Part shown: positions 1 through 64,000 of the stretch, one piece after another
Layout: the number at the start of each line of letters is the position of its first letter
How positions within the stretch are numbered: the first letter of the stretch is position 1
Source of the DNA: Candidatus Marinacidobacterium sp.
Lineage (GTDB): Bacteria; Acidobacteriota; Vicinamibacteria; Marinacidobacterales; Marinacidobacteraceae
Assembly: GCA_965204755.1 (NCBI GenBank)
Contig: OZ242011.1
Coordinates: 1,504,001 to 1,568,000 of the forward strand
Direction: 5' to 3'
Length of the DNA: 64,000 nt
Program-made: the position numbers and the translations under genes
Notes under the pieces: model-generated
Databases searched by the model: none
Told to the model about the DNA's origin: nothing
What the model saw: only the letters and a program-made list of their open reading frames with translations

Positions 1-1638
1 GGCAACCTGCGCCCGGACGAGAGCGTCCGGGTGACCCGCCTGGCCGATGTGGTGACGGCGGGCGTCCGGCCGGCGCTCGACCTGCTCCTGTGGGGCGCGC
101 TCCTGCTGACGCTGGCCGCCTCGGTCAGCATGACCGCCCTCCGCATGTCGGCGATGCTCGCGGAACGCGTCGCCGCGGCGACGCGGCGGGCGCTCGGCGC
201 TTCGTCGGGAGACGAACTGCGCCGCGCGCTTTCGCGGGTCGTCGTCCAAGCCGTATTCGTCGGCGCGGCGGCCAGTCTGGTCGCGTTCTGGCTCATTTCC
301 GCGGCGCGCCGGTTCGCCGGCGCCGTGCCTTTCTCGGAATCGTGGGGCCTCACGCCGGCCGGCGTCGGCCTCGGGTTCGCCCTGGCGCTCGTCGCGGTGG
401 CCATTTCCGAGACACCGGCCGTGTTCGCGGCGCTGCGCCACCCGCCGCGGCTGGTGGGGGCGCAGCCGCTCACTCCGGGAACCGGGGCGCTCGCGTCCTC
501 CTACCTCGCCTTCGGAACTCTTGCTTCGACGGCGATGCTCATCGCGGCGGGGGCGTTCAGCGCTCGGGCCTTCGATCTCGTACGGGGCCTCGGCGGCTAT
601 TCCGCGGAGGGGTTGGCGCAACTCACCGTGGACTTCGGCGGTACGACTCGGCCGCCGTCCCACGACGAAAAGGCCGCGGCGCTGAAGCGCGCCGCCGACC
701 GCCTCCGCGCCCTCCCGGGCGTGGTGGAAGTCGGTTACGCGGACGCCCTCCCCGACGCCATGGGCCGGGTGAATTTCGAGAGTTTCGAGCCCGGCGCCGC
801 CGCCTTCACGGAGATCCGGGCGAGCCCTCGACTGCTCCAGACCCTCGGGCTCGAAGTACTTCGGGGACGCGGGCTCCTCGAGACGGACGACCCGCCGGCG
901 GAAACGGTCGCCGTGCTGTCGCGCTCCCTGGCGCTGCGGCAGGGCGGCGATCCGATGAACCGGATGATCGGGTCGAGGGGCTCCGAGGCGCGCGCCGTCG
1001 GCGTCACGGCGGATGTGCTGCGCTTTCCCGCCGAGGCGGCGCCGCCCGCGGCGTACATCCCGTTCGCCGAGCCGCCGATCGCCGCGATGCCGGCGCCGCG
1101 CGCCGAGATCGTGGTCCGGTTCGACCGCGCCGTTCGCGAGGCGGACGCCGCCGCGCTCGCGCGGGAAGTCGCCTCGGCCGCCCCGGCGCTCCGAATCCTG
1201 CGCGCCGAATCCGTGCGAGATCGCCGCGCCCGTCTGCTCGGCGGCAATGTCCTCGCTGCGGCGCTGGTGGCGCTCTTCGCGGCGGTTTCGGCGCTCTTGG
1301 CAGTCGTGGGCGCGGTGGGTCTGGTGGTCGAGACCGCGGCCCGGCGAGTCCGGCGCCTCGCGATCCTCCAGGCCGTGGGCGCCCCGCCGGACGCCGTCGT
1401 CCGGGCCGCCGCCGGCCGCAGCGGGTGGGCGTCCGGGGTCGGCGTCGGTTTGGGGGTCGCCGGCGGGTGGGTGCTCCTGCGGGTCGTGGGGAGCCGGATC
1501 GCCTGGGTGGAGACCGGGGACTGGACGCTCTACGCCGGGCCGGCCGCGCTCATGGGGCTCGCCCTGCTCGCCGCGTGCGCCGCGACCGGGCTCCGGGCGC
1601 TTCGCGCCAACCCTTGGGCGGCGCTTCGTTCGTTGTAA
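1..1638 (+). CDS. ABC/FtsX-MacB-type permease (ADOP-like duplicated orphan permease), 5' truncated by the window edge
   Basis: Open frame from the window start; two FtsX-like TM blocks (RRALGAS..., RRLAILQAVGA) flanking a periplasmic domain; C-terminal NPWAALRSL. Confidence 0.8.
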   Translation, partial: GNLRPDESVRVTRLADVVTAGVRPALDLLLWGALLLTLAASVSMTALRMSAMLAERVAAATRRALGASSGDELRRALSRVVVQAVFVGAAASLVAFWLISAARRFAGAVPFSESWGLTPAGVGLGFALALVAVAISETPAVFAALRHPPRLVGAQPLTPGTGALASSYLAFGTLASTAMLIAAGAFSARAFDLVRGLGGYSAEGLAQLTVDFGGTTRPPSHDEKAAALKRAADRLRALPGVVEVGYADALPDAMGRVNFESFEPGAAAFTEIRASPRLLQTLGLEVLRGRGLLETDDPPAETVAVLSRSLALRQGGDPMNRMIGSRGSEARAVGVTADVLRFPAEAAPPAAYIPFAEPPIAAMPAPRAEIVVRFDRAVREADAAALAREVASAAPALRILRAESVRDRRARLLGGNVLAAALVALFAAVSALLAVVGAVGLVVETAARRVRRLAILQAVGAPPDAVVRAAAGRSGWASGVGVGLGVAGGWVLLRVVGSRIAWVETGDWTLYAGPAALMGLALLAACAATGLRALRANPWAALRSL

Positions 1639-1678
1639 CCCAGCGCCGCCCGTTAGGGCCTCGGCGTTCTCCCGGCGG

Positions 1679-6383: not shown

Positions 6384-6460
6384 GGCGGGGTAGCTCAGTC
6401 GGTTAGAGCGGAGGACTCATAACCCTCAGGTCGGCGGTTCGAGTCCGCCCCCCGCTACCA
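6384..6460 (+). tRNA. tRNA-Met (CAT), elongator type
   Basis: GGCGGGG acceptor stem, TAGCTCAG D-arm, CTCATAA anticodon loop, GTTCGAGTC T-loop, encoded CCA. Confidence 0.93.
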
Positions 6461-9635: not shown

Positions 9636-11252
9636 TTGACCCACCTCACGACGGAACACCTCGGTTTCGCCCGAAGCCGCCACGACCTCTCCACTTCCGG
9701 GATCCGCTACCCGCGGCGGGTGCTGTGGAACCTGTCCACGGCGGCGCTCACCCAGGAGGCCGTCTTCCGCGGGGAGGCGACGCTGGCCCACGGCGGCCCC
9801 ATCGTGGTGCGCACCGGCGAGTTCACCGGCCGGTCGCCCAAGGACAAGTACATCGTCGAGGAGCCGAACACGAGCGGCGAGGTGTGGTGGGGCCCCCACA
9901 ACCAGCCGTTCTCGCGCGAGCAGTACGACCGGCTCCGCTGGCGGCTCACCGCCTACATGCAGAACCGGGAGTTGTTCGTCCAGGACTGCTTCGCCGGCGC
10001 CGACCCCGAGTTCCGGCTGCCGCTGCGCGTGATCACCACCACGGCGTGGCAGAGCCTGTTCGCCCGCAACATGTTCATCCGGACGCGCGACGAAACCCGG
10101 CTGACCGAGCACGAACCGCAGTTCACGGTCATCGCCGCGCCCAGTTTCCGCGCCGCGCCCGACCAGGACGGCACCCGGTCCGAAGTCTTCGTGATCGTGA
10201 ACTTCGAGCGCCGGGAGATCCTCATCGGCGGCACCGCCTACGCCGGCGAAATCAAGAAGTCCGTCTTCTCGGTGATGAACTGGCTGCTGCCGGAACGCGG
10301 CGTCCTGCCGATGCACTGCTCGGCGAACTACGGCGCCGACGAGGACGACCTCGCCATCTTCTTCGGCCTCTCGGGCACCGGGAAGACCACGCTCTCCGCC
10401 GACCGGGGCCGCACGCTGGTCGGCGACGACGAACACGGGTGGGGCGAGAACGGCGTCTTCAACTTCGAGGGCGGCTGCTACGCGAAGGTCATCCGGCTGT
10501 CCCGCGAAGGGGAACCGGAGATCCACGCCACGACGCGCCGCTTCGGAACCATCCTGGAGAATGTGAAGGTGCGGGAGGAGACCCGGCGCCTCGACCTCGA
10601 CAGCGCCGAGTTCACCGAGAACACGCGGGCGTCCTACCCGGTCACCCACATCCCGAGCGCCTCCCGAACCGGTTGCGGCGGGCAGCCGCGGGTGGTCCTG
10701 ATGCTGACTGCGGACGCCTTCGGCGTGCTCCCGCCCATCTCCCGGCTCACCCCGGAGCAGGCGCGCTACCACTTCGTGTCCGGCTACACCGCGAAGGTCG
10801 CCGGCACCGAGCGCGGCGTCAGCGAGCCGCAGGCGACCTTCAGCGCCTGCTTCGGCGCGCCGTTCATGACCCGCCGACCGGAGGCGTACGCGGAACTCCT
10901 CGGCCGCCGCCTCGAGGAGCGCCAGGTGAAGTGCTACCTGGTGAACACCGGCTGGACCGGCGGCCCCTGCGGCGCCTCCCCGCGGATGCCGCTGGCGCTG
11001 ACCCGCGCGCTGGTGCGCGCCGCCCTCGACGGCTCGCTCGAGAAGACCGAGTTCCGACGGGAGCCGATCTTCGGGCTGCAGATCCCGAAGGAATGCCCCG
11101 GAGCCCCGCCGGAGATCCTCGATCCCGGTCGGAGTTGGCAGGACCCGGACGCCTACGGGCGCCAGGCGCGGAAACTCCTCGGCATGTTCGAGGAGAACAC
11201 CGAGAAACTCGGCCCGGCCGCCGGTTCGTTCGCCGCCGCGGCGGCGGCCTGA
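9636..11252 (+). CDS. pckA: Phosphoenolpyruvate carboxykinase (ATP)
   Basis: TGRSPKDK, YAGEIKK, GLSGTGKTTLS, GDDEHGW, FEGGCYAK motifs. Confidence 0.97.
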   Translation: MTHLTTEHLGFARSRHDLSTSGIRYPRRVLWNLSTAALTQEAVFRGEATLAHGGPIVVRTGEFTGRSPKDKYIVEEPNTSGEVWWGPHNQPFSREQYDRLRWRLTAYMQNRELFVQDCFAGADPEFRLPLRVITTTAWQSLFARNMFIRTRDETRLTEHEPQFTVIAAPSFRAAPDQDGTRSEVFVIVNFERREILIGGTAYAGEIKKSVFSVMNWLLPERGVLPMHCSANYGADEDDLAIFFGLSGTGKTTLSADRGRTLVGDDEHGWGENGVFNFEGGCYAKVIRLSREGEPEIHATTRRFGTILENVKVREETRRLDLDSAEFTENTRASYPVTHIPSASRTGCGGQPRVVLMLTADAFGVLPPISRLTPEQARYHFVSGYTAKVAGTERGVSEPQATFSACFGAPFMTRRPEAYAELLGRRLEERQVKCYLVNTGWTGGPCGASPRMPLALTRALVRAALDGSLEKTEFRREPIFGLQIPKECPGAPPEILDPGRSWQDPDAYGRQARKLLGMFEENTEKLGPAAGSFAAAAAA

Positions 11253-12080: not shown

Positions 12081-13990
12081 ATGAAGAAGAACCGCTCGAA
12101 CCGGCAGTGGCGGTGGGAAACCGTCGACCCGAATGTGGGCGCTGCCGGCGGCGCCTTCGCGAAGGTGTTTCGCAACCTGGAGGAGAAGAAGCCCGGCTTT
12201 CTGGAGGAAGGCGCTCCGGGGTTGAACGCTTACCTGATGGCTCGAGAGGTCATCCAGAACGCATGGGACGCCGCCCTCGAGTTGCGGAAACCTGCCCCCC
12301 CCCCCCCCCCGCAAAAAGTCTTCCAGATTTCTACATCCAGTTCGACTTTCGTGTGCTGAGCGGTTCGGAAAAGAAGTCGCTCATCGCCACACTGGACTTG
12401 GGCGGGCATGTCGAGCGGCTTTCGCAACTCGAACGACAGACGATCGGTCTCGATGACGATCTCTGTCTGGATCATCTCGAGAGCAACGAACCGCTCCCGG
12501 TTCTCGTCATCGAGGAGACGGCAACGACCGGGATGTTCGGGCCGTGGAAGGGCGCCAAGTCGAAACTCTTCAAGGCTCTCGCCGCCCTCGGCATCCAAGG
12601 CAAGGACGATGCGGATGCCGGGGGTGCCTTCGGTTTCGGCAAGGCGGGCCTGATTCGCGGTTCGGCCCCGCGGATCGTGGTGGCCTACACCTGCTTCCGG
12701 GAACAGATGGACGATCCAGGAGTTACCCGTCGCCTCTTGGGAATCACCTATTGGGACGCACATTCACTGGACGACCGAGACTTCACCGGAATGGCGCGTT
12801 GGGACACGAACTCCGATGAGCCGCGACCGTTCGAGAACGACGAGGCGGACGGTATCGCCGAGGAACTGGGGCTGAGGCTTCGCCACCCGGACAACGACGA
12901 GGACTTCGGCACTTCGTTCTTGATCCTGCAACCCACCGTCGATCCGGGGAGGCTGGAGACCGCGATCAACCGCTCTTGGTGGCCGGCGCTGGAAGACACG
13001 ACGCTCGGCTTCCAGGCAGCGATCCGGCCGCCCGGCGAAGACGCGCGTTCTCCGCGACCGCAACAGGACGCCGACCTGCAGCCCTTCGTCCGTGCTTATC
13101 GGCAGGCGACCTCCACCGCAAAGTTCATCGGCAAAGTTCCCAACCTCCACTCTTTTGATATCTGGGACTCGTCCCGACTACTGGGAAAACTCGTACTGGT
13201 CACCGACCCGGACGGTTGGTCGTTCCAGGACCCGAGTTCGTCATCGGATGAGAGTCTCGTCGCGCTGATGCGCAACACGCGGATGGTCGTGGAATATCGA
13301 AAGTTGGGGTTCCGGGAGACCACTCCGATCGTTCGCGGCGTCTTCGTGGCGGACGACGGCGTGAGCGGTCTTCTCCGGGAAACGGAACCCGTCGGGCACG
13401 ATGCTTGGTATTCGGGTGGTGACGAGAACGATGCCAGCGAAGAGGCTCGTGCTGTCGCAGACTGCATCCTGAAGAAAATCAAGGATCGCGTTCGCAAGGT
13501 TCGCAAGGACTTGGCGCCGCCCGCACCGAAACCGGAGTTCGTGAGGCTCCCGGAGTTCGACCGCATCATGCGGCGCATCTTGGGCGGCGAGGGCCGAAAA
13601 CAGGGGCCGACCGCGCAGAGGCGTTTCGTACGGTTGGATGGAATCGAGAGCGAGCCCGAGATCGTTGGCCACGGGCTCATCCGTACCACCGGGTCCGCGC
13701 AGTTCGGTCTGAGCGAAAATTTTCCGGTGTCCCGCCCCGGCGCACGCGTTGCCATCCAAGTCCGTTTCGTGGTACTCGAGGACGGTCAGGCCCGCGGCGC
13801 CAATAGCGTCCCGGTCGCAGTCGCGCCTCCCGATGGCTTCGAAGTCGCCGACGACGCCGATCCCCACCGCTTCACGGGCTGGTTGGCTCGCGGCGACGAA
13901 CACGGCTTCTCCTTCCAAACGGATCCTTACGACGAGGATTGGACCGGTCGGCTCTACATCGAGGCCGAATTCCTTTCCGAGGACTCTTGA
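12081..13990 (+). CDS. GHKL (MORC/MutL-like) ATPase, frameshifted at a poly-C tract (phase-variable, pseudogene or sequencing error)
   Basis: Motif I REVIQNAWDA in ORF 12081-12359; motifs IEETATTGM, GGAFGFGKAG and GTSF in the frame ending at 13990; frames switch at C16. Confidence 0.75.
12295..12310 (+). repeat. C16 homopolymer
   Basis: Counted directly; C14 or C17 would restore the frame. Confidence 0.9.
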
Positions 13991-14976
13991 ATCGAGAACG
14001 CAAGACCGTACGCCCGTTTCGGGGCGTAGCGCCGTCGCTGACCAGAGCCCTGCGGAATGCGGTTCTTCGGTTCGGAGAGAAACAGGTCACCGCGGGCGCT
14101 CGCCTCCAGTGGGACGACTTCGAGACCTACCGAGACCAAGACATTTTGCTGGAGTGGAGCGCGGACGACGAGTCTCCGACCTTCTTGTCCGGGCTGAAAC
14201 AAGGCTGCCGCGAGTCCGGTCTGCCTCCCGACAGTCTGGCTCTCGTCGTCACGGCCACCAGCCGGTATCTCGGTATCGTGGATGTCCTCTTCAACTGTCC
14301 TCTGGACGACTTGGATGAACTCGAACCTGCCCTTGACCTTCGGGCCGAGAAAACCGACGCGGCGGCTTGGAGGACATGTGTCCGAGGTTGCCGGGTGGAC
14401 GCGTATCTCCTGCTCGCCCGCAAACTGGAAGAACGGCCTCTTCGCCCCTGGAGGAAGGGAGTGTGGCTGTCGAGGGCGAGTTTCACGGTAGCGACAGACT
14501 ACACGGAGAGTCTGTTTCGACCGAGGAAACTGGACGACAAACAGCGGAAGCGATTTCAACTCTCGGTTCAGGCGCTCCGCTATGTCCATCTTCCGGAACC
14601 CGTCTGGGAGGAATATGACCCCGAAGAGCCGCCGGAGGTGTACTTGGACGCCGAGATCATGGCGCAGATCGCGGCGAAGCCGAAAGCGCTGCCGAGCCGC
14701 CTGGCCCAAGCGGAACTCGCCTATGTGTTCCTGCGTGGCGTCCTCACCGATGCTCACATGAACCGAAAGCAGTGGCGCGGGCGCATGTGGCGGGACATCG
14801 CGAACACACTGCTCGGCAAGGCCCTTCGCGCCATCGCCGGGAAGAACGCGCCCGTCGCCGAGTGCGCTCGATGGATGGACAGACTCGGCAGTGACGGTGG
14901 CTTGGAGGGTGTCGTGTCGGAGTGCGAGGGCGTCACCGAAATTCGCGCTCTTCTTCGCGACGCGTTTCGGGAGTAG
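13987..14976 (+). CDS. Hypothetical protein, second gene of the GHKL-Dcm cassette
   Basis: TTG overlaps the ATPase TGA (TTGA coupling); 329 aa globular-looking sequence; no motif recognised. Confidence 0.7.
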   Translation: MNRERKTVRPFRGVAPSLTRALRNAVLRFGEKQVTAGARLQWDDFETYRDQDILLEWSADDESPTFLSGLKQGCRESGLPPDSLALVVTATSRYLGIVDVLFNCPLDDLDELEPALDLRAEKTDAAAWRTCVRGCRVDAYLLLARKLEERPLRPWRKGVWLSRASFTVATDYTESLFRPRKLDDKQRKRFQLSVQALRYVHLPEPVWEEYDPEEPPEVYLDAEIMAQIAAKPKALPSRLAQAELAYVFLRGVLTDAHMNRKQWRGRMWRDIANTLLGKALRAIAGKNAPVAECARWMDRLGSDGGLEGVVSECEGVTEIRALLRDAFRE

Positions 14977-14981
14977 CCACG

Positions 14982-15704
14982 ATGCGATACAAGACACTCC
15001 CGCTCCAGGAGTGTCGGCGTTTCGCCCGCGAGCGACTCGCGGGAGAGACGCCGGACATCGGTACGGGCGTTGTCTTCGCCGGAGCCGGCGAAGACCTCGA
15101 CATAAAGCCGATCCGCAAGGCCGCCAAGAAGATCGTCCGTCTCGTCGACGACAAGGCGAAGGATCGGGATCGAATCGAGGGGAAGGCCGCTGTTCTCCTC
15201 TACGACGGCCTTGCCGGAGTCCCGGTCGACGCACTCGACGATCCGGGTTTCTGGCGCTACCTGAGTGTCGGATTGGCGTTTTGGGGCTTCATCGCCTGGA
15301 GGGAGCACCGCGCACTGCAGAAGGGCGACAACTTCCTCAAGTATGTCGACGGGAAGAAGGCGACCGAGTGTGTCCTTCCGCGCATGTACATGCGCGTGTT
15401 GGCGCTCGGCGCCCGGGACGACCCGAAGGGACAGTTCCGGGAACTGGCTACGGCGCTTCCGGCCGCGACGGACTTCTGGCGGAGTCATGTGGTCCGGGTG
15501 CAGACCGCGGCGTCGCCGGCCGTCGTTCGGGCGTTCGCGCGAATGCAAAAAGAGAGGCGTCTCAACACCGACGATCTCCGGGAGTTCGCGAAGGACATTT
15601 CCAAGATCCGTTCGACGGTCGTTTTGAGCATCTACAACGACGAGGAAGCCGACATCTTCATCCGAGACCTTCGCGCGAAGTTCGACCGCCGGAAGGCCGG
15701 ATAG
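14982..15704 (+). CDS. Hypothetical protein (weakly DUF6339-like), third gene of the cassette
   Basis: ATG 5 nt after the previous stop, preceded by GGAG; DDPGFWRYLS motif. Confidence 0.65.
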   Translation: MRYKTLPLQECRRFARERLAGETPDIGTGVVFAGAGEDLDIKPIRKAAKKIVRLVDDKAKDRDRIEGKAAVLLYDGLAGVPVDALDDPGFWRYLSVGLAFWGFIAWREHRALQKGDNFLKYVDGKKATECVLPRMYMRVLALGARDDPKGQFRELATALPAATDFWRSHVVRVQTAASPAVVRAFARMQKERRLNTDDLREFAKDISKIRSTVVLSIYNDEEADIFIRDLRAKFDRRKAG

Positions 15705-17071
15705 TGAGTCTTGCCGGCGCCGCCCGGCAGTCCCGTGTGGTTGCCGCGAAGGGAACGCTTCGGGAGGATTATCGGCACAACGGGAGTGTCCGGCACTCGC
15801 TCGCGCTCGGCGCGCGACGGGGCCTGAGCGCCGATCTGGGAGAGCCGGAGAGCGCCCCTCGCTGCAGCGGCGATCCCAAGGGCGAGTGGTGGCGCGCCTA
15901 TCTCCGCGGCCGCCGACCGGTCACAGCGAACCCGAGCGGGAAGACCCTGCGCATCGCCGACCTGTTCTGCGGGGCCGGGGGACTCGCGCTCGGGGTTCGC
16001 CAGTTGTGCGACGAAGCCGGTCTCGAGCCGGTCTGGGAGTTCATCGCCGACCGAGACGACGGCGCGGTGGCGGTGTACGCGGGGAACCACCCGGTGCGGC
16101 GGGTCTCGAGGGAATCGGTGTCCGACCTGCTGGACTACCGGGTGCGGCGGCGGTCGAGCGGGGCCGAGTTCGTCTATGAATCGGAGTTCCTCGACCCCGA
16201 GTTGCGCAAGGCGGTGCGCGGCGTGGACCTGGTGATGGCCGGGCCGCCGTGCGAGGGGCATTCGAACCTGAACAACCACACGCGCCGGGACGACCGGCGG
16301 AACCACCTCTATCTCGCGGTTCCGGCGTTCGCGGTCGCTGCGGGGGCGCGGATGGTGCTCATCGAGAATGTGCCCGCGGTGGAGAACGACCGCAGCGGAG
16401 TGGTCGAGGCGGCGCGTAACCTGTTGGAGGCTGCCGGTTATTCCGTCGAAACCGGCGTCCTCGCCGCCGACGCCATGGGATGGCCGCAGACGCGGCGGCG
16501 GTTCTTCCTGGTGGCTCACCGTTCCCGCGCGCCAGTGCCGTTCGCGGCGATCCGTGAGGGTCTCGCCGACGATGCTCCGCGCCCGCTCTGGTGGGCCATC
16601 GAGGACCTGGAGGAGACCGGCGGCGACGATCCGCTGCATCGCGTGGGGGAACTCAGCGAGGAGAACCGCGCTCGTATCGCGTGGCTGTTCGACAACGACG
16701 CTCACGAACTCGACCTCTCCGAACGGCCGGCCTGCCACCGGGACGGCACGACCTACTCGGCGGTGTACGGGCGTATGCACCGGGACCAGCCCGCGCCGAC
16801 GATCACGACCGGTTTCCTGACACCGGGCCGCGGCCGGTTCGTGCATCCGACCCGGCGACGGACGCTGACCCCGCGCGAAGCGGCCCGGCTGCAGGGTTTT
16901 CCCGACACCTACCGGTTCGCTCCGGAGGCCGACCGAGTCCCCACCCGGTCGCAACTCGCGAAGTGGATCGGGGACGCGGTGCCCATGCCGCTCGGCTACG
17001 CCGCGGCGCTCTCCCTGCTCGCCCCCGAGTTGGGCCGGGCGAGCCCGCGACGGAAACCGCAGCACGCGTGA
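15704..17071 (+). CDS. dcm: DNA (cytosine-5)-methyltransferase
   Basis: DLFCGAGG (I), GPPCEGHS (IV), IENV (VI), QTRRR (VIII), RTLTPREAARLQGFP (IX), IGDAVP (X); GTG overlaps the previous TAG. Confidence 0.92.
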   Translation: MSLAGAARQSRVVAAKGTLREDYRHNGSVRHSLALGARRGLSADLGEPESAPRCSGDPKGEWWRAYLRGRRPVTANPSGKTLRIADLFCGAGGLALGVRQLCDEAGLEPVWEFIADRDDGAVAVYAGNHPVRRVSRESVSDLLDYRVRRRSSGAEFVYESEFLDPELRKAVRGVDLVMAGPPCEGHSNLNNHTRRDDRRNHLYLAVPAFAVAAGARMVLIENVPAVENDRSGVVEAARNLLEAAGYSVETGVLAADAMGWPQTRRRFFLVAHRSRAPVPFAAIREGLADDAPRPLWWAIEDLEETGGDDPLHRVGELSEENRARIAWLFDNDAHELDLSERPACHRDGTTYSAVYGRMHRDQPAPTITTGFLTPGRGRFVHPTRRRTLTPREAARLQGFPDTYRFAPEADRVPTRSQLAKWIGDAVPMPLGYAAALSLLAPELGRASPRRKPQHA

Positions 17072-17510
17072 CCGGCGCCGGCGCCGGGCCGGCGCGGGAG
17101 GAGTCGGTCCCGGAGTCCGTTCGGCGGCGGATGCGGAATACGCCGCGGCGGGATACGCCGTTCGAGGTCGCGGTGCGGAAGCAGGCGTACGCGTTGGGCC
17201 TGCGCTATCGCGTGGACTGCGGCGTTCCCGGAGTGACCCGGGGACGGCCCGACCTGGTATTCAGCGGACGCCGGGTGGCCGTGTTCCTCGACGGCTGCTC
17301 TGGCACTCCTGCCCGATCCACCGCTCGGCCCCGGCCACGAACCGCGAGTGGTGGGCCGCCAAACTGCGGGCGAACGCCGACCGCGACGAACGCCACCGCC
17401 GGGAACTCGAGGACGCCGGATGGACCGTCCTCCGCTTCTGGGAACACGAAGATCCCGCAACCGTCGCCGCCGAAATCGCCGCCGCGGTTCGCGGGTCCCA
17501 ACCGGGCTGA
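17068..17510 (+). pseudogene. vsr: Very-short-patch repair endonuclease Vsr, 1-nt deletion frameshift near 17299
   Basis: RRM...RRDTPFE..GLRYR..GRPDLVF..AVFLDGC, then WHSCP..WWAAKL..N..RD..GWTVLRFWEHE in another frame (tgc t_c tgg instead of tgc ttc tgg). Confidence 0.85.
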
Positions 17511-45555: not shown

Positions 45556-47103
45556 ATGTCGCGGGCCGGCCGACCCGGGGCCGATCGGGTTCGGAGGCGA
45601 AACGGCGAACGCCGCCCCTTCGCCGGAGGGGGGGATACGGCGACGCGGCCACTCCTGAGACCGGAGCGTTCGGCCGAGGTCGTCGTCGTCGGGGCCGGGC
45701 CGGCGGGGGCGCTGGCGGCGCGGCAGTTGGCTCGGTTCGGGGTCGAGGTCGTCCTCGTCCATCGGGCTCGGCGGCAGCAGCGGGCGGAGAGTCTGGGGGC
45801 TTCCGCGGCGCGGCTGCTCGGCTCCTACGGGCTGGAACTGCCGGAGTCGGTGTTCTCGCCGCGTCCCTCCGACCACTTCGTGTTCTGGGGCGGACGCGAG
45901 GATCGGGTGGCCGCCCAGCCGGAGGATCCCGGGCGATTCGGCGAGGGGCAGCGACTGGTCTGGCGCGGCGCGCTCGACGAGTGGGCGCTCGCGGAGGCGA
46001 AGCGCGCCGGCGCGATCGTCCTGGAGGGGTCCGCGGCGCCGGCGGACGATGCGGCGCGACGGGGCGGGGGAGTCGTCCGGGTGCGGGAGAGCGCAGGGCG
46101 CGCGTTCCGGATCGAGGCGCGGGCGGTCGTGGACGCCAGCGGGCGGAGCGGGGCCTTCACCGGCGCGAGGCGCATCCGGCCCGACTTCCGGACGACCGCC
46201 CTGACCGCGCACTTCGCGGGGAGCGAAGCGCGGGGGACTTCCGTGGTCTCGTTCCCGGACGGGTGGATCTGGAGCGCGCCGCTGCCGGACGGACGACGGG
46301 AGGTGACGGCGCTGGTGGACGCGGAGGCCGCCGCGGGGAACGCCGAGGGCTGCTTCCACGCGGCGGCGGCCTCGGCGGCGGCAGCGGCCCCGGGAGTGCG
46401 GCGCTTCCTCTCCGGTTCGCAGATGGCGGCGGTCCGCGCTGCGGACGCCACGCCCTATGTGTCGGGAGCGGCGCCGCCGGAGAGGGCGAGCGCGACCGTC
46501 TTGGCGGTGGGGGACGCGTCGAGCGCGCTCGACCCGTTGACCGGGCTCGGGGTCCTGAAGGCGATGGACTCCGGGCTGACCGGGGCGGTCGCGCTCCGGA
46601 CGGCGCTCGCCCGTCCGGAGGACGCCGCGCTCGCGCTGGCCTTCCACGCCGACAAGGAGCGCGGGCTCGCCGCCGGGAGCGCGGAGCGGATCGCCGGCTT
46701 CTACGCCGAGGAGCGGCGGTTCGCCGACCGCCCGTTCTGGCGCCGCCGCGCCGGGACGCCTCCGTCGCCGTCCCCGCCGCCCGCGCCGCCGAGTCCGGAG
46801 ACCCCGCTCCATCCGGCGAAGGATGCGCGGATCGAGACGCGGGGGGTGCTCGAAGGCGACTGGATCGTTCCCGCGGAAGTCGTCGTCCGGCCGGGCCGCC
46901 ACCGGCCGGCGCATCGCGTCGGGGGCGCGCCGCTCGCGCCCCTGTTCCGGGGCGCCGAAGGAGGGGCCACCGCCGCCGAACTGGCGCGGCGAGTCCCGGG
47001 GACCGGCGCTTCCGGGATTCGGGCGGTCGGCTGGCTCGTCCGGGAGGGGTTCCTCGCCCCGGAGCGGGGCGGTCAGCCTCCCCGCCGCGAACGCTCCGAC
47101 TGA
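45556..47103 (+). CDS. qhpG: FAD-dependent monooxygenase, QhpG-like (CTQ Trp hydroxylase)
   Basis: GAGPAG Rossmann motif; GDASSALDPLTGLG...TALARPE.AALA..FH...FYAEERRF.DRPFW matches the QhpG family as recalled. Confidence 0.68.
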   Translation: MSRAGRPGADRVRRRNGERRPFAGGGDTATRPLLRPERSAEVVVVGAGPAGALAARQLARFGVEVVLVHRARRQQRAESLGASAARLLGSYGLELPESVFSPRPSDHFVFWGGREDRVAAQPEDPGRFGEGQRLVWRGALDEWALAEAKRAGAIVLEGSAAPADDAARRGGGVVRVRESAGRAFRIEARAVVDASGRSGAFTGARRIRPDFRTTALTAHFAGSEARGTSVVSFPDGWIWSAPLPDGRREVTALVDAEAAAGNAEGCFHAAAASAAAAAPGVRRFLSGSQMAAVRAADATPYVSGAAPPERASATVLAVGDASSALDPLTGLGVLKAMDSGLTGAVALRTALARPEDAALALAFHADKERGLAAGSAERIAGFYAEERRFADRPFWRRRAGTPPSPSPPPAPPSPETPLHPAKDARIETRGVLEGDWIVPAEVVVRPGRHRPAHRVGGAPLAPLFRGAEGGATAAELARRVPGTGASGIRAVGWLVREGFLAPERGGQPPRRERSD

Positions 47104-47106
47104 CCG

Positions 47107-48339
47107 CTACGCCGAGCAGCCGCGGGCGGCGACCGGCCAGACCGCCTCGACCACCCCGCCGCGGACGGCGTACATCCGGTCGTAGAGATTCACCACCGGG
47201 TCGCAGTGGGAGACGATGAGTTCGAGTCGGTCGCCGACCCGGTAGGTGCGGCTGGGATCCTCGTAGCGGAGCGTCCCGAACTCGTCGGAGCCGGAGGTGT
47301 AGGTCATCCCGGTCTCGCCCTTCACGATCGCCCAGGGCCGGTTGATCGTGCACGCCTTCGCCCCGGCGTCGGTGGTGGCGCGGCCTTCGTACTGGGCGTT
47401 CAGCACCGTCGCCAGGACCGTGAGCGACGGCCGGAAGTCGGTGTACGCCTCCGGGTCGGACTCGCCGCCGATGGCCAGGTACTGGGCGTCCATGAAGACA
47501 TAACTCCCGGCCTGCACATCGGTGAAGCCGGGCGTCCCGTGGTCGATGTTGTAGGTGCCCGTGCCGCCGCCGCTGAAGATGCCGGTGTCGAGCCCTGACG
47601 CCTCCATCCGCTCGCAGGTTTCGGCGGCCGCCGCCAGCCGCCCGAGCGTCTGTTCGCGCCGCTTCTCGAAGCCGTGGACATGCTGCGAACCGCCGTCGTA
47701 GCAGAGCAGGCCGCGCAGCCGAAGCCCCGGCAGCCGGTCCACCAGCCGGGCCAGCGCGAGCGCCGGGTCGCCCGGCGTGATTCCCGTGCGGTGGCCGCCG
47801 GGGTCCACATCCACCACCACCTCGGCGGTAACGCCGGCGGCCCCGGCCGCCTCGGAAAGCATCCGGGCGTTGTCCTCGGTGTCGGTGGCCTGGATGAACG
47901 ACGGGTTCCGCTTCGCGAGCCCCATGGCGCGCCGGATCTTGTAGGGGGTCACATTGCTGGTGGTCATCAGCAGCGGCCCGATCCCGTGGTCGTGGAGCGC
48001 CTGCGCCTCGCTGACCTTCGCCACCGAGATGCCGAGCGCGCCGGAGTCGAGTTGCATCCGGGCGATCGCCGGGCACTTGTGGGTCTTGGCGTGCGGCCGC
48101 ACGGCGATCCCGTTGGCGGTCACCGTCCGCTGCATGACCGCGAGGTTGGCTTCGAGGGCGTCGAGGTCCACGAGCAGCGCCGGGGTGTCCAGGTCGTGGA
48201 CGGCCATCCCGTACTCCGGGGCCTCCGGGGTGGCGGCGGCGGGGTGCGGCGTTCGGGCGCCGGCGGCGGCGCTCGGGCCGAGCGCGGCCGCTCCGGCGGC
48301 GCCCAGGAAAACACGGCGGGACATCGAGTTCTCGGTCAT
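47107..48339 (-). CDS. DSD1/D-threonine aldolase-family PLP enzyme with a Tat signal
   Basis: SRRVFL Tat motif; DTPALLVD, RPHAKTHK, SGGGTGT, QAGSYVFMD, HCDPVVNL. Confidence 0.88.
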   Translation of the reverse strand: MTENSMSRRVFLGAAGAAALGPSAAAGARTPHPAAATPEAPEYGMAVHDLDTPALLVDLDALEANLAVMQRTVTANGIAVRPHAKTHKCPAIARMQLDSGALGISVAKVSEAQALHDHGIGPLLMTTSNVTPYKIRRAMGLAKRNPSFIQATDTEDNARMLSEAAGAAGVTAEVVVDVDPGGHRTGITPGDPALALARLVDRLPGLRLRGLLCYDGGSQHVHGFEKRREQTLGRLAAAAETCERMEASGLDTGIFSGGGTGTYNIDHGTPGFTDVQAGSYVFMDAQYLAIGGESDPEAYTDFRPSLTVLATVLNAQYEGRATTDAGAKACTINRPWAIVKGETGMTYTSGSDEFGTLRYEDPSRTYRVGDRLELIVSHCDPVVNLYDRMYAVRGGVVEAVWPVAARGCSA

Positions 48340-48640
48340 GCGGAGTTTGTATCAGACCCGCGGAGGCGGGGGCCGCCTCGGTGCCGCACCGCTCGGCGCT
48401 CCCCGTTGTCCGCCGGAGGGGGGCGTCGCCGGCCGCGCGCGGGCCCCGGTCGGGCGGCTCCGCTCCCGCCCCGGCCGCTGCCCATCGGGCTCTCCGCACC
48501 ATCGGGCCTCCCCCGCCTAGAATCCGTCCCGCCACCCGGCGATGGGTTCCCTCCCCCCTCGGGGCGCTCCTGCGCACCGCGCCCCCTTCCCGCCCGACTT
48601 CCGGCCGTCCCGCCGGGCTTAGGCCCCTCTACACCGCCCC

Positions 48641-50381
<1,741 letters not shown>

Positions 50382-50385
<4 letters not shown>

Positions 50386-52913
50386 TCCTCAAGGAGTACC
50401 AGCGAAGGGCGCTGGAGCGGGTGAGGATGTATCTTCGCCTGCTCGCCGAATGGCGCGACAAGGCAGGGGGCCTCGATCCCGCGCTCGGTGTGGACTGGGC
50501 CGAACGGGCTTGGGAGGCCGCGGCGACGCGCCGCGCCTACTTCAAGAGAACGAACGGGCTCGACCAGCCGTTGCCGGTCTTCTGCCTCAAGATCCCCACG
50601 GGGGGCGGCAAGACGCTGCTGGCGACGAAAATCATCGATCTCGTCAATGTGCACTTCCGTTATCGCCAGAGCGGGCTGGTGCTTTGGGTAGTTCCGACCA
50701 AACAGATCTACGACCAGACCCTTCGCGCCCTGCGAGATCGGGACCACCCCTACCGCCAGCAACTCGACATCGCCTCCGCCGGGCGCACCGTAGTATTGGA
50801 GAAGAACAGCGGGTTCGGCCCGTCGCAGGTCGCGGAAAACCTCTGCATCCTGCTCCTCATGCTGCCCTCGGCCAACCGCGAGACCAAGGAGCAGTTGCGG
50901 ATGTTCCGGGACAGCGGCGGCTTTGCGAGTTTCTTTCCGGGCGACGACGACTTCGACGGGCACAAGGGCTTGCGGAAGAGGATCCCGAATCTGGACACTT
51001 TCGAGAAGGAGGGCGCTTACGGGAGGCACCAGATCAAGACCTCGCTCGGCAACACGCTGCGTCTGCTGGAGCCGCTGATCGTTCTCGACGAGGGGCATAA
51101 GGCCTACGGCTCGCTGGCCCGGGAGACCCTCGAAGGATTCAATCCCCACATGATCGTGGAATTGTCGGCGACGCCGACCAAGGAAGCGAATGTCCTCGTG
51201 GAAGTGTCGGGACAGGCGCTGAACGCGGAAGAGATGATCAAACTGGATCTCCATATCCAGAACAAGTCGAGCGTCAGTTGGCAGGACACGATGCTCGCCG
51301 CCGTCGAGCACCGACAACGCTTGGAGGAACGGGCGCTGGCGCACGAGGGCGAGACGGGGACCTACATCCGACCGATCTGCGTGGTGCAGGTGGAACGGAC
51401 CGGAAAGGAGCAGAGAAAGGCCGGCTTCATCCACGCGGAGGATGTGCGCGACTACCTTCTCCGCCATCCCGCAATCACGGCCGAACAGGTGGCGGTCAAG
51501 ACCAGCGCGCGCGACGAGTTGAAGGAGGTGGACGAGGTCGGCGGCCTGTTGTCGCGCGACTGCCCGATCCGCTTCATCATCACCAAGCAGGCGCTGCAGG
51601 AGGGCTGGGACTGCGCGTTCGCCTATGTCCTGGCGATCCTGACGAGCCCGAGTTCCAAAAGCGCCCTGACGCAGTTGGTGGGGCGCATCCTGCGTCAACC
51701 GTACGCCCGGAAGACGCAAGTCCCGGCCCTCGACGAGAGTTATGTCTTCTGCTTCCAACGAAACGCCAGGGACCTCCTCGATCAGGTGCGCAGAGGGTTC
51801 GGCCAAGAGGGCCTTGAGGACCTGACATCCCGCGTCCGGACGGACGACGGGGATGCGCCGCGGCCCGGAGAGACCATCACCGCCAGCCAGAGAGGCCGCT
51901 TCCGTCGGACCACCAAGGAGTTCGTCCTCCCGACCTTCGTGATTCACGAGGACGGACGATGGCGGCCCGTTCATCACGAAGTCCATCTTCTGTCCCGCGT
52001 CCGGTGGAACGAAGTGGATCTGACTCCGCTCTTCGACTTGGAACTCGGCCAAGCGGGTGGCGATCAAGTCCTTCGCGCCGGCTTGGACGGCGAGCGCTTC
52101 AATGCGGCTCCGCTCGCGGCGCCGGCGATGTCGGGAGATGCGGAAGACGGCGTGGTGGACTACTACTTCGCGGCCAACCACCTGAACGAAGTGATGCCGA
52201 ACCCGTGGAGAGCCGCCGAAGCGGCGCGGCGAGTGTTCGAGACACTGATGTCGAAGCGACCGAAGGAACTCGTCGCCGCCAACGCCCTGTTCGTCCTCGA
52301 GGAGTTGCGCAAGCACCTGGCCCTCGAACGCGACCGGCTCTCCCGGAAGGTCTTCTCCGAACTCCTCGATTCGGGAACGATGCGGTTCCTGGTCATCGCG
52401 AAGGACTTCGGCTTCAACCGGCTCCCGCTGACGATCGACTATCCCGTGAAGGAGCGCCAGGCCAACCGCGACGATGGAAGCCAGTTCCAACGCAACCTCT
52501 TCGACCGTACGAACGAGACCGACCTGAACGGCCTCGAACAGAAAGTCGCCGCCTATCTCGACGGGCAGGAACGGCTGTTCTTCTGGTACCGCAATCGATC
52601 TCGCAAGGACTTCTTCGTCCAAGGCTGGAGACCGCACCGGATCTACGCCGACTTCATCCTTACGCTCGAAGCCGACGAACCGGACGCCGACGACGAATTC
52701 CACCGCGTCTTCGTCGTAGAGACGAAGGGGGTCCACCTGAAGGATTCGGAGGACACCGCCTACAAGCGGTCGGTCTTCGACCTCTGCTCCCGCCACGCCC
52801 GGAAAGCCGACTGGGCGGACTTCGTGCCCGCCATGCGCGACAAGGTGATGCGCTTCGAAGTCGTGGACGAAGACCAGTGGGAGAGACACTTGAACACGCT
52901 CTTTCGAGCATGA
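50382..52913 (+). CDS. res: Type III R-M restriction subunit (SF2 helicase plus PD-(D/E)xK nuclease)
   Basis: TGGGKT, DEGH, SAT, EGWD, QLVGRILR; YADF...VETKG; ATGA overlap with mod. Confidence 0.9.
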
Positions 52914-58974: not shown

Positions 58975-60422
58975 TCGCCGCCGAGGCTTCGAACCTGCCC
59001 TCGAACCTGATCGCCGCCGGCGAGATGCACCGGTTCACCGGCGGCAGCCGCCGGTTCGCCTATCTGGTTCCCTCCTCGATGATCTTCGAGTTGGACGAGA
59101 TGAGCGACCGGCTGCTGACCCGGCTCGAAGCCGGGCCGCTTCCCCCGGACCGGGTCGCGGAGAGTCCGGAGGAGGCCGAGGCGCTCCGCGAACTCGCCGG
59201 AATCGGGGCGGTCGCCCGCCAGGGCGCCCCGCTGATCCCCATCGGCGGCTTGGCGGAAGTGGAGTCGCCGCCGCCGATCCGCACCGTCGTCCTGAACATC
59301 ACGAACTCCTGCAACCTGGCTTGCCGGTATTGCTACGAGTACGGGGACGACCGGATCGCCGAGGCGGAAGTCCCGGCGGCCATGACCGAGGAGACAGCCC
59401 GGCAGTCCGTGGATCGCCTGATCGCGGACTCCGGGGAGGCGAAGGACCTGCAGGTGACCTTCTTCGGCGGCGAGACGCTGCTGAACTGGAAGGTGATCCG
59501 CCCGACCGTGGAGTACGCGAGGGCCGAAGCGGAGCGCGCCGGCAAGCGGGTGGATTTCAGCCTGACCACCAACGCGACGCTCCTCACCCGCGGGATCTCC
59601 GAGTGGATCGCCGACAACGACATCGGCGTCACCATCAGCGTGGACGGCCCCAAGGAGTTCCAGGACTCGATGCGGGTGTACCGGAGCGGGATGGGCAGTT
59701 ACGAAGTCATAGCTCCCCGCATCGCCGAGTTCCTGAAGTTGCAGCGCCGGCCGGTCGGCGCCCGGGTCACCGTGACCTCGAAGACGCTCGACATCCCGAA
59801 GATCTTCGACCACCTGATCGGTCTCGGCTTCTACGAGGTCGGCTTCGCGCCGGTGACTTCGTCGCCGAACCGGGACTACGCGCTCGACGAGGGCGGTTTC
59901 GACGCGCTGCTCGACCAGTTCCGGGACTTGGCCGACCACTATGTGGACGCCGCCGGCGAAGGCCGGTACTTGGGCTTCTCCAACCTGAGCGACCTGCTGG
60001 GCGAGATCCACCAGGGCGTGAGCAAGGCGTACCCCTGCGGTGCCGGGCTCGGGCTCGTCGGCGTGGCGCCGGGAGGCGAAGTGGGGCTCTGCCACCGGTT
60101 CGCCGGTTCCGGCGACCACGACCTCGGCCATGTGGCCACCGGGATAGACGACGCGAAACGCGCCGAGCACCTCGAGAAAGCGCACATTGACGCCCGCACC
60201 GACTGCAGCCGGTGCTGGGTGCGCAGCCTCTGTTCCGGCGGCTGCTACCACGAAGCGCAGGTGCGCTACGGCGACCGGTTCCGCCCGAACCTCCACTACT
60301 GCGACTGGATCCGCGATTGGACCGCGCTCGGCCTCTCGGTGTACGGGAGGCTGATGGAGAACAGCCCCGCGTTCCTCGCCCGATTCGAAGGCGCTCCCCG
60401 CGCCGAGCGCGCCACCCCGTAG
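58971..60422 (+). CDS. qhpD: Radical SAM/SPASM thioether-forming maturase
   Basis: CNLACRYC, FFGGETL, PCGAG, CHRF, CSRC..RSLCSGGC; directly upstream of qhpC. Confidence 0.93.
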   Translation: MIAAEASNLPSNLIAAGEMHRFTGGSRRFAYLVPSSMIFELDEMSDRLLTRLEAGPLPPDRVAESPEEAEALRELAGIGAVARQGAPLIPIGGLAEVESPPPIRTVVLNITNSCNLACRYCYEYGDDRIAEAEVPAAMTEETARQSVDRLIADSGEAKDLQVTFFGGETLLNWKVIRPTVEYARAEAERAGKRVDFSLTTNATLLTRGISEWIADNDIGVTISVDGPKEFQDSMRVYRSGMGSYEVIAPRIAEFLKLQRRPVGARVTVTSKTLDIPKIFDHLIGLGFYEVGFAPVTSSPNRDYALDEGGFDALLDQFRDLADHYVDAAGEGRYLGFSNLSDLLGEIHQGVSKAYPCGAGLGLVGVAPGGEVGLCHRFAGSGDHDLGHVATGIDDAKRAEHLEKAHIDARTDCSRCWVRSLCSGGCYHEAQVRYGDRFRPNLHYCDWIRDWTALGLSVYGRLMENSPAFLARFEGAPRAERATP

Positions 60423-61912: not shown

Positions 61913-63609
61913 CCCGGAATCCGCCGGCGCCGGCGAAGGCGGGCGCGCCCGCCGGCGCGTACCGCCGCGCCTTCCGGCTGGCGCTTCCCTACTGGAGGCG
62001 GCTCTCCGGGACGCTCGTCCTGTCGCTGGCGGCGGCGCTGCCCGGGCTGCTGTGGCCGCTGCTGCTGCGTCCGCTGGTGGACGACGCCCTGCTCGGCGGT
62101 CAACTGCGCCTGCTCGCCGGGCTGGCGGGGCTGATGGCGGCGATGCAGATCGGCGGTTTCGTCCTCACCTCGTTCGTCGGCTACCGGTATGTGCGGATTT
62201 CCGCCGAGGCGCTGTTCGCCCTGCGGCTTTCCGTGTTCCGGCATCTGCAGCGCCTGTCTCCCCGGTTCTTCGCCCGGGCGCGCACTGGCGACATCCTCTC
62301 CCGGCTGAACGGCGATGTCTCGGAACTGCAGCGGACCGCGGGCGACCTGCCGCTGTCCTTGGTCTCCAACCTCTTCGGCTTGGTCGTCGCGCTCGCCGCG
62401 CTGCTCTGGCTGGCGCCGGCGCTGCTCCTGCCTCCGCTGCTCGCGTTGCCGTTCGCGGCGTTTTCCCTGTGGAAGTGGCGCGAACGGGTCACGCGGCAGA
62501 ACCGGGAACTGCGCGAAGCGAGCGCCTCCGTCGGCAGCGCGCTCGTCGAGTCGGTCCTCGGGATGCGCCAAACCGTCGCCTTCCGGCAGGAAGAACGCGA
62601 AGCGGAGCGGTTTCGCGCCGAGAACGACGGCTTCATCCGCGTGCTGCTGCGCTCGCGCATCACCACCTACGCGGCGTCCGGGATTCCGTCGGGACTCGTT
62701 TCCCTGGCGGGCGCCGCGGCATTCCTCTACGGCGGCGCTCTCGTGATCTCCGGGGAGATGACGCTGGGAACGCTGGGCGCGGCGATGATGTACCAAACCC
62801 GCCTCTTCGGCCCGGTGCAGGGCGTGCTCGGGCAATACCTCGGGCTGCGCGCCGCGCGGGCGTCGTTCGAGCGGGTGTTCGAGTTGCTGGACGAACCGGC
62901 CGGAGTGGAGCCGCCGACCCGCCCGGCGCCGTTCCCGCAGCCGCCGGGGCCGCTGACCGTCGAGCGGGTTTCGCTCTCGTTCGAACGCGGCGGCCCGCCG
63001 GTGTTCGCCGGCGCCGACCTGACCCTGCCGGAGCGGTCGTTGACCGTGCTCGTCGGCCCGACGGGAGTCGGGAAGACGACGCTCACCGATCTCCTCCTGC
63101 GCCGCGCCGACCCCGACTCGGGCCGGATCGTCTGGGGCGGCGCCGACATCCGCGAGTTGGGATTGGAAGACCTGCGGTCGCGGATGGCGGTCGCCGAGCA
63201 GGACCCCTTCCTCTGGAACGCGACCATCGCGGAGAACATCCGCTACGGGCGGCCCGGCGCTTCGGACCCGGAGGTCGCCGAAGCCGTGCGGCTGGTCGCG
63301 CTCGACGAGTTCACGGACTCGCTCCCGGAGGGATTGGAGACCGTGGTGGGCGAACGCGGACAGCAACTCTCCGCCGGCCAGCGCCAACGCATCGCCGCCG
63401 CCCGCGCCGTCCTGGTGGCCCCGGCGCTCGTCGTCCTGGACGAACCCACCTCCGCGCTCGACGAGGCCACGGAGGCGTTGCTGGTGGAACGGCTGACGCC
63501 GTGGCTGCGGAAGCGGATCGCGCTGGTGATGACTCATCGCCCGGCATTCGTCCAAGCCGCCGACCGCGTATGGCGCCTGGAGGACGGCCGCATCGAACCG
63601 GCGCCGTGA
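61909..63609 (+). CDS. qhpF: ABC exporter (TMD plus NBD), QhpF-like; probable CTG start
   Basis: TMD homology extends to about 61960; GPTGVGKT, LSAGQRQR, LDEPTSALD. Confidence 0.85.
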   Translation: MTRNPPAPAKAGAPAGAYRRAFRLALPYWRRLSGTLVLSLAAALPGLLWPLLLRPLVDDALLGGQLRLLAGLAGLMAAMQIGGFVLTSFVGYRYVRISAEALFALRLSVFRHLQRLSPRFFARARTGDILSRLNGDVSELQRTAGDLPLSLVSNLFGLVVALAALLWLAPALLLPPLLALPFAAFSLWKWRERVTRQNRELREASASVGSALVESVLGMRQTVAFRQEEREAERFRAENDGFIRVLLRSRITTYAASGIPSGLVSLAGAAAFLYGGALVISGEMTLGTLGAAMMYQTRLFGPVQGVLGQYLGLRAARASFERVFELLDEPAGVEPPTRPAPFPQPPGPLTVERVSLSFERGGPPVFAGADLTLPERSLTVLVGPTGVGKTTLTDLLLRRADPDSGRIVWGGADIRELGLEDLRSRMAVAEQDPFLWNATIAENIRYGRPGASDPEVAEAVRLVALDEFTDSLPEGLETVVGERGQQLSAGQRQRIAAARAVLVAPALVVLDEPTSALDEATEALLVERLTPWLRKRIALVMTHRPAFVQAADRVWRLEDGRIEPAP

Positions 63610-64000
63610 CCGAGGCGGCCCGACGGGAAGCGGGCGGTCCGCCCGGCCCCGCGTTGTCGCCGCCGCTGACGATCGCGGTCGTGGACAGCGGCATCAACCC
63701 GACGCACCCGCAGGTCGGGCCGGTCGCCGGCGGCGTTCGAATCGCCCTCGTCGAGGGCGAAGTCCGTTACGCGGACGACTGGCGCGACGGCCTCGGCCAC
63801 GGCACCGCTGTCGCCGCCGCGATCTCCGAAGACCTGCCGGAGGAAGGCTGGCGGCTGCTTTCCGTCCGCGTCTTCGGCCGCCGCCTGGAAGCCCCCTCGG
63901 AATGCCTCGCCGCGGGAATCCGCTGGGCGGCGAAACACCGGGCGCGCCTCGTGAACCTCAGCGCCGGAATCCCGCTCGGCTCCGACCCCGCCGGGGAAGC
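63606..64000 (+). CDS. qhpE: Subtilisin-like S8 leader peptidase, 3' truncated by the window edge (not in the ORF track)
   Basis: GTGA overlap with the ABC gene; IAVVDSG, DGLGHGTAVA, VNLSAG. Confidence 0.85.
   Translation, partial: MTEAARREAGGPPGPALSPPLTIAVVDSGINPTHPQVGPVAGGVRIALVEGEVRYADDWRDGLGHGTAVAAAISEDLPEEGWRLLSVRVFGRRLEAPSECLAAGIRWAAKHRARLVNLSAGIPLGSDPAGE

Follow-up and report, generated by a model that had tools for sequence, protein, structure and literature searches.

The 64,000-bp stretch analysed here, which we call the window and to which all plain coordinates refer, corresponds to C1:1504001-1568000 in the genome of Candidatus Marinacidobacterium sp. (G000), a single contig (C1) of 3,975,858 bp. 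It has a GC content of 70.8% and includes native genes such as pckA, glnA and mfd, a tRNA-Met gene, a foreign-looking operon containing a C5 methylase gene, and two N6_N4 methylase-domain genes. The palindromes AGCT and ACGT are almost missing from it. AGCT occurs four times (6392, 27640, 49537 and 59711) and ACGT once (45107), while 171 copies of each are expected from base composition, and 125 (AGCT) and 109 (ACGT) from a second-order Markov model; the Poisson tails for the deficit are 8e-48 and 3e-46, respectively. A preliminary description, made from the letters alone, had reported both words as nearly absent and had put the expectation at about a hundred or more of each, and both statements are borne out by the counts. 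Its list of sites was correct for 6392, 49537, 59711 and 45107 and overlooked the AGCT at 27640. The words that it described as plentiful are so: TCGA is present 499 times, GATC 416, ACCT 238 and AGGT 180. AGCT and ACGT are the two rarest of the 256 four-letter words both in the window and in the whole genome, CTAG being the third, and the probability of finding palindromes at all three lowest ranks by chance is 2e-4. Genome-wide, 332 AGCT and 265 ACGT were counted, the expectation being 10,247 each by composition, and 7,446 and 7,147 by the Markov model. The deficit of the window is part of a depletion that extends across the whole genome, and is larger than first noted.

To take codon usage into account, a null was used in which the protein sequence is held constant and codons are drawn independently. 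Genes were called by periodicity of the GC content at third codon positions (GC3), with a caller that covers only about 82% of the G000 genome, and the scored gene sets are high-GC3 subsets (for G000, 1,724 genes with 837,687 codons). In these genes AGCT was observed 58 times and expected 5,993 times, and ACGT 71 times and expected 4,789 times, that is, an observed/expected ratio (O/E) of about 0.01 in native genes; some 5,900 AGCT and 4,700 ACGT positions have gone from them. The depletion is found whatever the codon frame: for frames 1, 2 and 3 the observed and expected values are 18/1,241, 30/4,548 and 10/204 for AGCT, and 18/1,328, 40/3,279 and 13/182 for ACGT. In 400 kb of a non-depleted member of the family (G004), used as control, O/E is 0.65-0.97, whereas 400 kb of the sister species (G001) give 0.03-0.11, except for frame-3 ACGT (6/18). 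As the ratio is about 0.01 in G000 and 0.65-0.97 in the control, the deficit survives codon correction. Markov ratios for the whole genome together with a codon correction had been suggested as a check in the preliminary description; neither returns values near 1, and the deficit is real. Raw four-letter word differences between the whole genomes of G000 and G004 are confounded by composition. At amino-acid-conserved positions that bear a site in G004, the site is retained in G000 in 0 of 265 cases (94 orthologue pairs).

The recoding can be followed in individual genes of the window. In pckA (9636-11252, forward strand), a native gene with a GC3 of 0.95, every Glu/Gln/Lys-Leu and Asn-Val pair is recoded, and glnA (18986-20401, reverse strand) and mfd (32308-35754, forward strand) are recoded likewise. 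Taking these three genes, identified by Pfam, together, NAG CTN is used in 0 of 20 Glu/Gln/Lys-Leu pairs and NAC GTN in 0 of nine Asp/His/Asn/Tyr-Val pairs, which agrees with the avoidance of GAG CTG and GAC GTG types of codon pair reported in the preliminary description.

The distribution of the depletion was surveyed in whole genomes with the six-letter proxies GAGCTG, compared with its reversed control, and GACGTG. The genomes were G001 and 39 other relatives from the same family and order, including the unpublished G033, and a phylum panel of 400 genomes, including the unpublished G192, G064 and G089. GAGCTG and its control were found 60 and 8,801 times in G000, and 382 and 9,460 times in G001; the ratio is at least 0.38 in the 39 other relatives. 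GACGTG was counted 42 times in G000, 173 times in G001 and 2,446-2,732 times in G002-G004. The depletion was seen neither among the 39 other relatives nor among the 400 genomes of the phylum, where the lowest ratio read was 0.16. Among the relatives tested it is confined to one lineage, being shared by the close relative and absent from distant ones, as is expected of restriction avoidance. The genus is deep, since syntenic DNA of G000 and G001 is only 76-82% identical. Recoding agreement between the two species was scored in 107 orthologue pairs, wherever a Glu/Gln/Lys-Leu pair is conserved. The recoding is shared at 175 of 249 positions, whereas independence predicts 56% (chi-square 24.6), and agreement at ordinary synonymous sites is 71%, the same level. 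As the agreement exceeds independence and equals that of ordinary synonymous sites, most of the purge is older than the divergence of the two species.

Two of the five sites remaining in the window lie in methylase genes of low GC3 and one in the tRNA-Met gene. The latter, an AGCT (6392-6395, forward strand), belongs to the D-arm of the tRNA (6384-6460). The sole ACGT (45107-45110) is inside the gene of an 805-aa N6_N4 methylase-domain protein (44497-46914, reverse strand, GC3 0.80), and another AGCT (49537-49540) is inside that of a 514-aa N6_N4 methylase (48641-50185, forward strand, GC3 0.74), which is followed by a ResIII helicase gene (50382-52913). The remaining two AGCT sites are located in a stretch without a called gene (27640-27643, within 25479-27859) and between called genes (59711-59714, within 59653-59939). 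In the whole genome, AGCT is kept in 23 of 67 tRNAs predicted by ARAGORN, mostly at position 9, in the D-arm (TAGCTCAG), these 67 predictions including evident false positives; about one third are GC-rich oddities of 85-98 nt and likely false. In the single rRNA operon, the 16S gene keeps six AGCT and four ACGT, and the 23S region 16 AGCT and two ACGT. Genes with a GC3 above 0.95 hold 0.04 sites per 10 kb, and those with a GC3 below 0.75 hold 3-6; even the islands of foreign composition, 38 in number and 147 kb in total, show a roughly 10-fold depletion (AGCT 37/372, ACGT 49/546). Stretches between called genes, with a GC content of 73%, show 21/289 and 11/375, and mixed neighbours of the words are in excess there; this set is contaminated by uncalled genes and was given little weight. 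The remaining sites are tolerated where function or recent arrival keeps them.

The explanation that we favour, with a probability of about two in three, is long-lasting selection against AGCT and ACGT as double-stranded DNA sites, most likely exerted through AluI-like and MaeII/HpyCH4IV-like Type II enzymes. AluI is specific for AGCT, and MaeII and HpyCH4IV for ACGT. The lineage would carry, or would long have carried, Type II enzymes cutting both words, and every unprotected site would then represent a small risk of self-cleavage. Mutations that destroy a site without harm to the gene would be favoured, the cheapest in coding DNA being a synonymous change. Sites fixed by RNA function, as in rRNA and tRNA genes, would stay and be tolerated, presumably through methylation, and imported DNA would lose its sites over time. 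We infer restriction as the cause from the fact that the avoided words are short palindromes, that they are rarer than composition, Markov and codon expectations all predict, and that the code is rewritten in an undirected manner where it permits a choice, as detailed below for threonine codons. In addition, G000 is restriction-rich, with six C5 methylase genes (M1-M6) and 26 N6_N4 methylase matches. Another palindrome is informative in this respect. GTCGAC is observed 416 times in G000 (2,076 expected), 50 times in G001 (239 expected) and seven times in G004 (168 expected); GTAGAC/GTCTAC is also low, and together with GTCGAC is 5- to 25-fold under-represented in three genera, a pattern resembling GTMKAC. 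As this family-wide avoidance fits the BbrUII/HgiDII-family system of G000, restriction avoidance is at work in the lineage. If the explanation is correct, a bacterial genome can have its codon pairs rewritten by the thousand under restriction pressure. Digestion of G000 DNA with AluI or a MaeII-type enzyme would yield very large fragments.

Several observations weigh against this explanation. No methylase or nuclease cognate to AGCT or ACGT was found, and none of the many methylases of G000 could be assigned to either word. M1 adjoins an EcoRII-type gene and M4 a BbrUII/HgiDII-family restriction gene, both pointing to other sites, and none of three further cassettes (M3/PDC-M33, M6 and M2 with its 330-aa partner, described below) is tied to AGCT/ACGT depletion in other carriers. 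The orphan N6_N4 methylases syntenic in G000 and G001 show no clean association either. An O/E of 0.01-0.04 for two words at once is far below that of other avoided words in G000 (0.20 for GTCGAC), and CCWGG is not avoided despite the EcoRII-type system; thus a resident system neither guarantees depletion nor sets its scale. In frame 3 the depletion is about 6-fold weaker than in the other two frames (binomial p = 2e-5 and 3e-6), which is the direction that a C-to-T mutational contribution would predict. Finally, ACT before T exceeds the expectation of pure equilibrium selection about 2-fold. The lack of a match may be accounted for by loss of the cognate enzymes from the lineage, since in the published model the trace outlasts the system (PMC4687349).

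Other causes have to be weighed against selection by restriction. The preliminary description had proposed two, restriction avoidance and long-term C5 methylation without efficient repair. According to the latter, resident C5 methylases would mark AG(m5C)T and A(m5C)GT, and poorly repaired conversion of 5-methylcytosine to thymine would erode the sites. The six C5 methylase genes agree with this, as does the lesser depletion of frame 3, which lacks a synonymous C-to-T route; AACT/AGTT and ATGT are also the main replacements in frames 1 and 2, and in frame 2 of G000 they are observed 4,719 (AACT, 1,754 expected), 4,476 (AGTT, 2,436 expected) and 3,753 times (ATGT, 514 expected). However, the only synonymous escapes from NAG|CTN are NAA|CTN and NAG|TTG, and the sole one from NAC|GTN is NAT|GTN. 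As the code limits the escapes to C-to-T products, any cause of site loss yields that pattern: AGTT/AACT and ATGT/ACAT are C-to-T products in excess, as the preliminary description had it, but they are not diagnostic of deamination. The threonine codon ACG before T discriminates between causes, having three synonymous alternatives. ACT|T (789 observed, 163 expected) and ACC|T (2,838 observed, 2,338 expected) are both raised in G000, whereas ACA|T, the deamination-type product, is not (66 observed and 43 expected, compared with 19 and 10 in G004). At amino-acid-conserved positions with ACG|T in G004, G000 has ACC in 17 cases, ACT in four and ACA in none of the 21. Deamination should also have little effect on frame-3 sites (xxA|GCT, xxA|CGT), where both C-to-T products are non-synonymous, yet these are depleted 14-20 fold. 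It would further presuppose the absence of dedicated T:G mismatch repair, and six Vsr-family matches, which may supply such repair, were found in G000, where five of the six C5 methylase genes have one at a distance of up to about 6 kb; in G001 such matches lie near three of three. A Gammaproteobacteria metagenome-assembled genome (MAG) that has the same depletion and is also without TCGA, GATC, GGCC and CTAG has only two C5 methylase matches, and the three tested cassettes show no link to AGCT or ACGT. We therefore consider mutational decay improbable as the cause, and of the two causes originally proposed retain restriction avoidance. The accessibility of mutations, perhaps with some deamination among them, influences by which route the sites are replaced but does not explain the loss. 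The case is a worked example of how an excess of "deamination products" in coding DNA is no evidence of deamination.

Selection might also act on exchange rather than on the resident genome: in a community full of 4-base cutters only site-poor DNA would survive transfer, so that genomes and gene pool converge. The 10-fold depletion already present in the foreign islands is in line with such filtering, as are the lack of any site in the foreign-looking M6 operon, the same or wider palindrome loss in unrelated MAGs which share mobile methylase cassettes and have 28-51 N6_N4 matches each, and the variation of restriction gene content between near-identical strains. Most of 80 genomes with an M3 cassette are nevertheless undepleted in their 21-kb flanks, and the most depleted class, native high-GC3 genes, is also explained by simple vertical self-restriction; we regard filtering at transfer as unlikely. 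Less likely again would be a sequence-specific process other than classical restriction-modification, for example an unfamiliar defence or editing system aimed at DNA, or a nuclease that attacks AGCU/ACGU in RNA. In its favour, the search for a cognate restriction-modification system in G000 gave none, and strand asymmetry cannot separate DNA- from RNA-level selection on palindromes. A comparable, unexplained loss of AGCT in A-clade pandoraviruses has been described by Poirot et al. (bioRxiv 10.1101/712018). On the other hand, all strongly depleted words, in G000 and in other MAGs, are palindromic, the signature of dimeric DNA enzymes; the abundant rRNAs and tRNAs keep the words, and the stretches between called genes are depleted as well, though that set includes uncalled genes. 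A further rival is an artefact of assembly or base calling at methylated motifs, where some long-read chemistries give systematic consensus errors. The retention of canonical AGCT and ACGT in rRNA and tRNA genes rules out a base-calling artefact; in addition, the replacements are synonymous with proteins conserved, the pattern recurs in the sister species and three other assemblies, and four further public runs contain contigs that match the region, long pieces of which show few differences. An artefact is hardly credible.

Restriction-site avoidance would imply that cognate enzymes, or their remains, might be traced among the methylase loci. Pfam, NCBIfam and PADLOC gave no clue to specificity for the methylase genes of G000, and neither protein searches nor NCBIfam matches returned informative names. 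M4 and its BbrUII/HgiDII-family gene lie at C1:2392933-2396051 (locus L012, 6933-10051). M3 and two proteins of the PADLOC PDC-M33 type are common to G000 and G001. Both cassettes are of the kind of the candidate system PDC-M33 (a C5 methylase with M33A and M33B, often with Vsr); between G000 and G001 the methylases are 73% identical and the partners 57% and 54%. An M3-type cassette is present at 76 of 80 loci from other genomes (L064-L143), which are MAGs of several phyla, and most of the 21-kb flanks are normal for AGCT and ACGT. Pooled over 48 loci with at least 57% identity, two depleted loci being left out, the flanks contain 2,819 AGCT (2,777 expected) and 2,902 ACGT (3,062 expected). 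M3/PDC-M33 was rejected as the determinant, since the flanks of its carriers are not poor in either word. Independently of this question, the four-gene cassette of C5 methylase, PDC-M33A, PDC-M33B and usually Vsr occurs with methylase identities of 41-73% across the 80 loci in Dehalococcoidia, Bryobacterales, Vicinamibacterales, Binatia, Entotheonella, Spirochaetia, Alpha- and Gammaproteobacteria MAGs, a distribution that gives evidence of wide horizontal spread.

The compositionally foreign operon of the window (12107-17781, forward strand) consists of five genes in 5.7 kb, has a GC content of about 63% and contains neither AGCT nor ACGT. The first three open reading frames (12107-13990, 13939-14976 and 14922-15704) belong to no Pfam family; the first has a weak match to PDC-M33A and the third a weak match to DUF6339. 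They are followed by the C5 methylase M6 (about 15905-17071) and a Vsr-like open reading frame (17068-17781). Judged by its gene content, the operon looks like an uncharacterised methylase-linked defence cassette. Homologues of M6 (44-60% identity) were found in five of 50 panel genomes, four of them outside the genus and with undepleted flanks. M6 was discarded as the cause because carriers outside the genus are undepleted and it is absent from four other depleted genomes. The M6-like and M4-like loci of G001 are rich in AGCT/ACGT sites.

M2 and a 330-aa Cys-rich partner (R330; C1:1860840-1862866, L010 6840-8866) form a widespread conserved two-gene cassette. A full-length partner is present only in G000 and G443, that is, in two of six depleted and none of 45 undepleted genomes (Fisher p = 0.012). 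The cassette was not retained as the cause of AGCT/ACGT loss: flanks of M2-type genes at 80 metagenome loci are not poor in these words (0.82 for AGCT and 0.55 for ACGT, by composition), and GGWCC is a better candidate site. The 330-aa protein family itself has no Pfam model, always adjoins an M2-like C5 methylase (G000, L216-L295) and shows the invariant motifs CDGGGNR, PCGxC and EVMTxSTSGG; a profile search of the partner against solved structures gave no match below E = 1. It is likely a new Type II restriction enzyme family, possibly specific for GGWCC. Among the orphan N6_N4 methylases, one that G000 shares with G001 has a 72% identical orthologue in the non-depleted G004. Another is nearly genus-specific, being found also in the non-depleted G007 (59%) and only partially in G444. 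Of the orphans, the 414-aa N6_N4 methylase at C1:1033879-1035123 has metabolic genes on either side; its relatives are a syntenic one in G001 (80%), one in G007 (59%), a fragment in G005 and proteins of at most 35% identity in the rest of the family.

Palindrome loss is also seen in other genomes (G441-G444), found via the panel of M3-carrying genomes, which probably represent two further independent lineages. Two Dehalococcoidia MAGs are without AGCT only (5/355 and 20/413, by composition). The Gammaproteobacteria MAG G441 (L154-L160, GC 53%) is poor in six 4-bp palindromes, with observed and expected values of 16/692 for GGCC, 4/543 for AGCT, 46/543 for TCGA, 25/543 for ACGT, 9/543 for CTAG and 134/543 for GATC; a second Gammaproteobacteria MAG has a similar look, on 4.9 kb only. 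With sizes of 2.0-2.9 Mb, the genomes G441-G444 each have 28-51 matches to N6_N4 methylases and no more than 2-3 to C5 methylases. Runs labelled as sponge and as marine metagenomes contain contigs near-identical to G000. In two runs (X1 and X2) the methylase-restriction cassette of M4 at L012 is replaced by other sequence; of 40 strain differences listed at this locus (of 539), none makes or removes a site, with about 1.3 expected, which is uninformative. We tentatively put forward, as a doubtful but conceivable extension, that near-total purging of several 4-bp palindromes may be a convergent trait of unrelated bacteria from one habitat, each with tens of DNA methylase genes, driven by a community pool of 4-base cutters whose AGCT and ACGT members belong to unrecognised families. 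If this were true, the purge would bear no less on the shared gene pool than on individual genomes. Judged by title and abstract opening, none of the papers returned by a search on sponge symbionts and under-represented palindromes dealt with palindrome depletion in symbiont genomes. The survey in any case flags a set of MAGs whose depleted words offer a prediction of what uncharacterised restriction systems recognise.

Some further features were recorded. The two N6_N4 methylase-domain genes and the ResIII helicase of the window (44497-52913) probably constitute a Type III-like system, and an alanine-racemase-like gene sits between them. The 16S gene of the rRNA operon is located at C1:2266234-2267794, and a tRNA-SeC is among the ARAGORN predictions for G000. 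In G004, CAGCTG is present four times with 111 expected (400 kb, L037-L056), though the total count of AGCT is normal, so that a neighbouring genus shows an avoidance of the PvuII type.

CpG-type depletion arises by deamination of 5-methylcytosine, and Dcm is accompanied by very-short-patch repair through Vsr. G000 resembles such cases in having an excess of the C-to-T products of its depleted words. It differs in being depleted where C-to-T changes are non-synonymous, in the dominance of other products when there is a choice, and, with respect to CpG-type deamination, in possessing Vsr genes. On the reading that we prefer, G000 is an extreme case of an already known effect, restriction-site avoidance, with which the works of Gelfand and Koonin (1997) and Rocha et al. 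(2001) on palindromes reportedly dealt. According to Rusinov et al. (2015; PMC4687349), long-resident orthodox Type II systems deplete their own sites, avoidance is stronger for systems of long residence, and the trace may persist after loss of the system. The likeness to what is described there lies in the short palindromes, in the lineage specificity and in the sharing by close relatives. What sets G000 apart from that description is the size of the effect (an O/E of about 0.01-0.04, reached by two 4-bp words simultaneously in a genome of 4 Mb), the lack of a cognate system among the genes found and the recurrence in unrelated MAGs sharing mobile methylase cassettes. A parallel in degree is offered by the A-clade pandoraviruses, for which Poirot et al. 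(10.1101/712018) describe an AGCT loss that is near-total and specific to the clade, in a large genome rich in GC, with undirected replacement and synonymous recoding, as in G000. That work concerns a giant virus of eukaryotes in which ACGT is normal and restriction-modification was excluded by digestion and gene content, whereas G000 is a bacterium with an abundance of methylase and restriction genes, and has lost ACGT too. The purge in G000 is almost as complete as that of the pandoraviruses, and it is found in a setting where its cause is testable.

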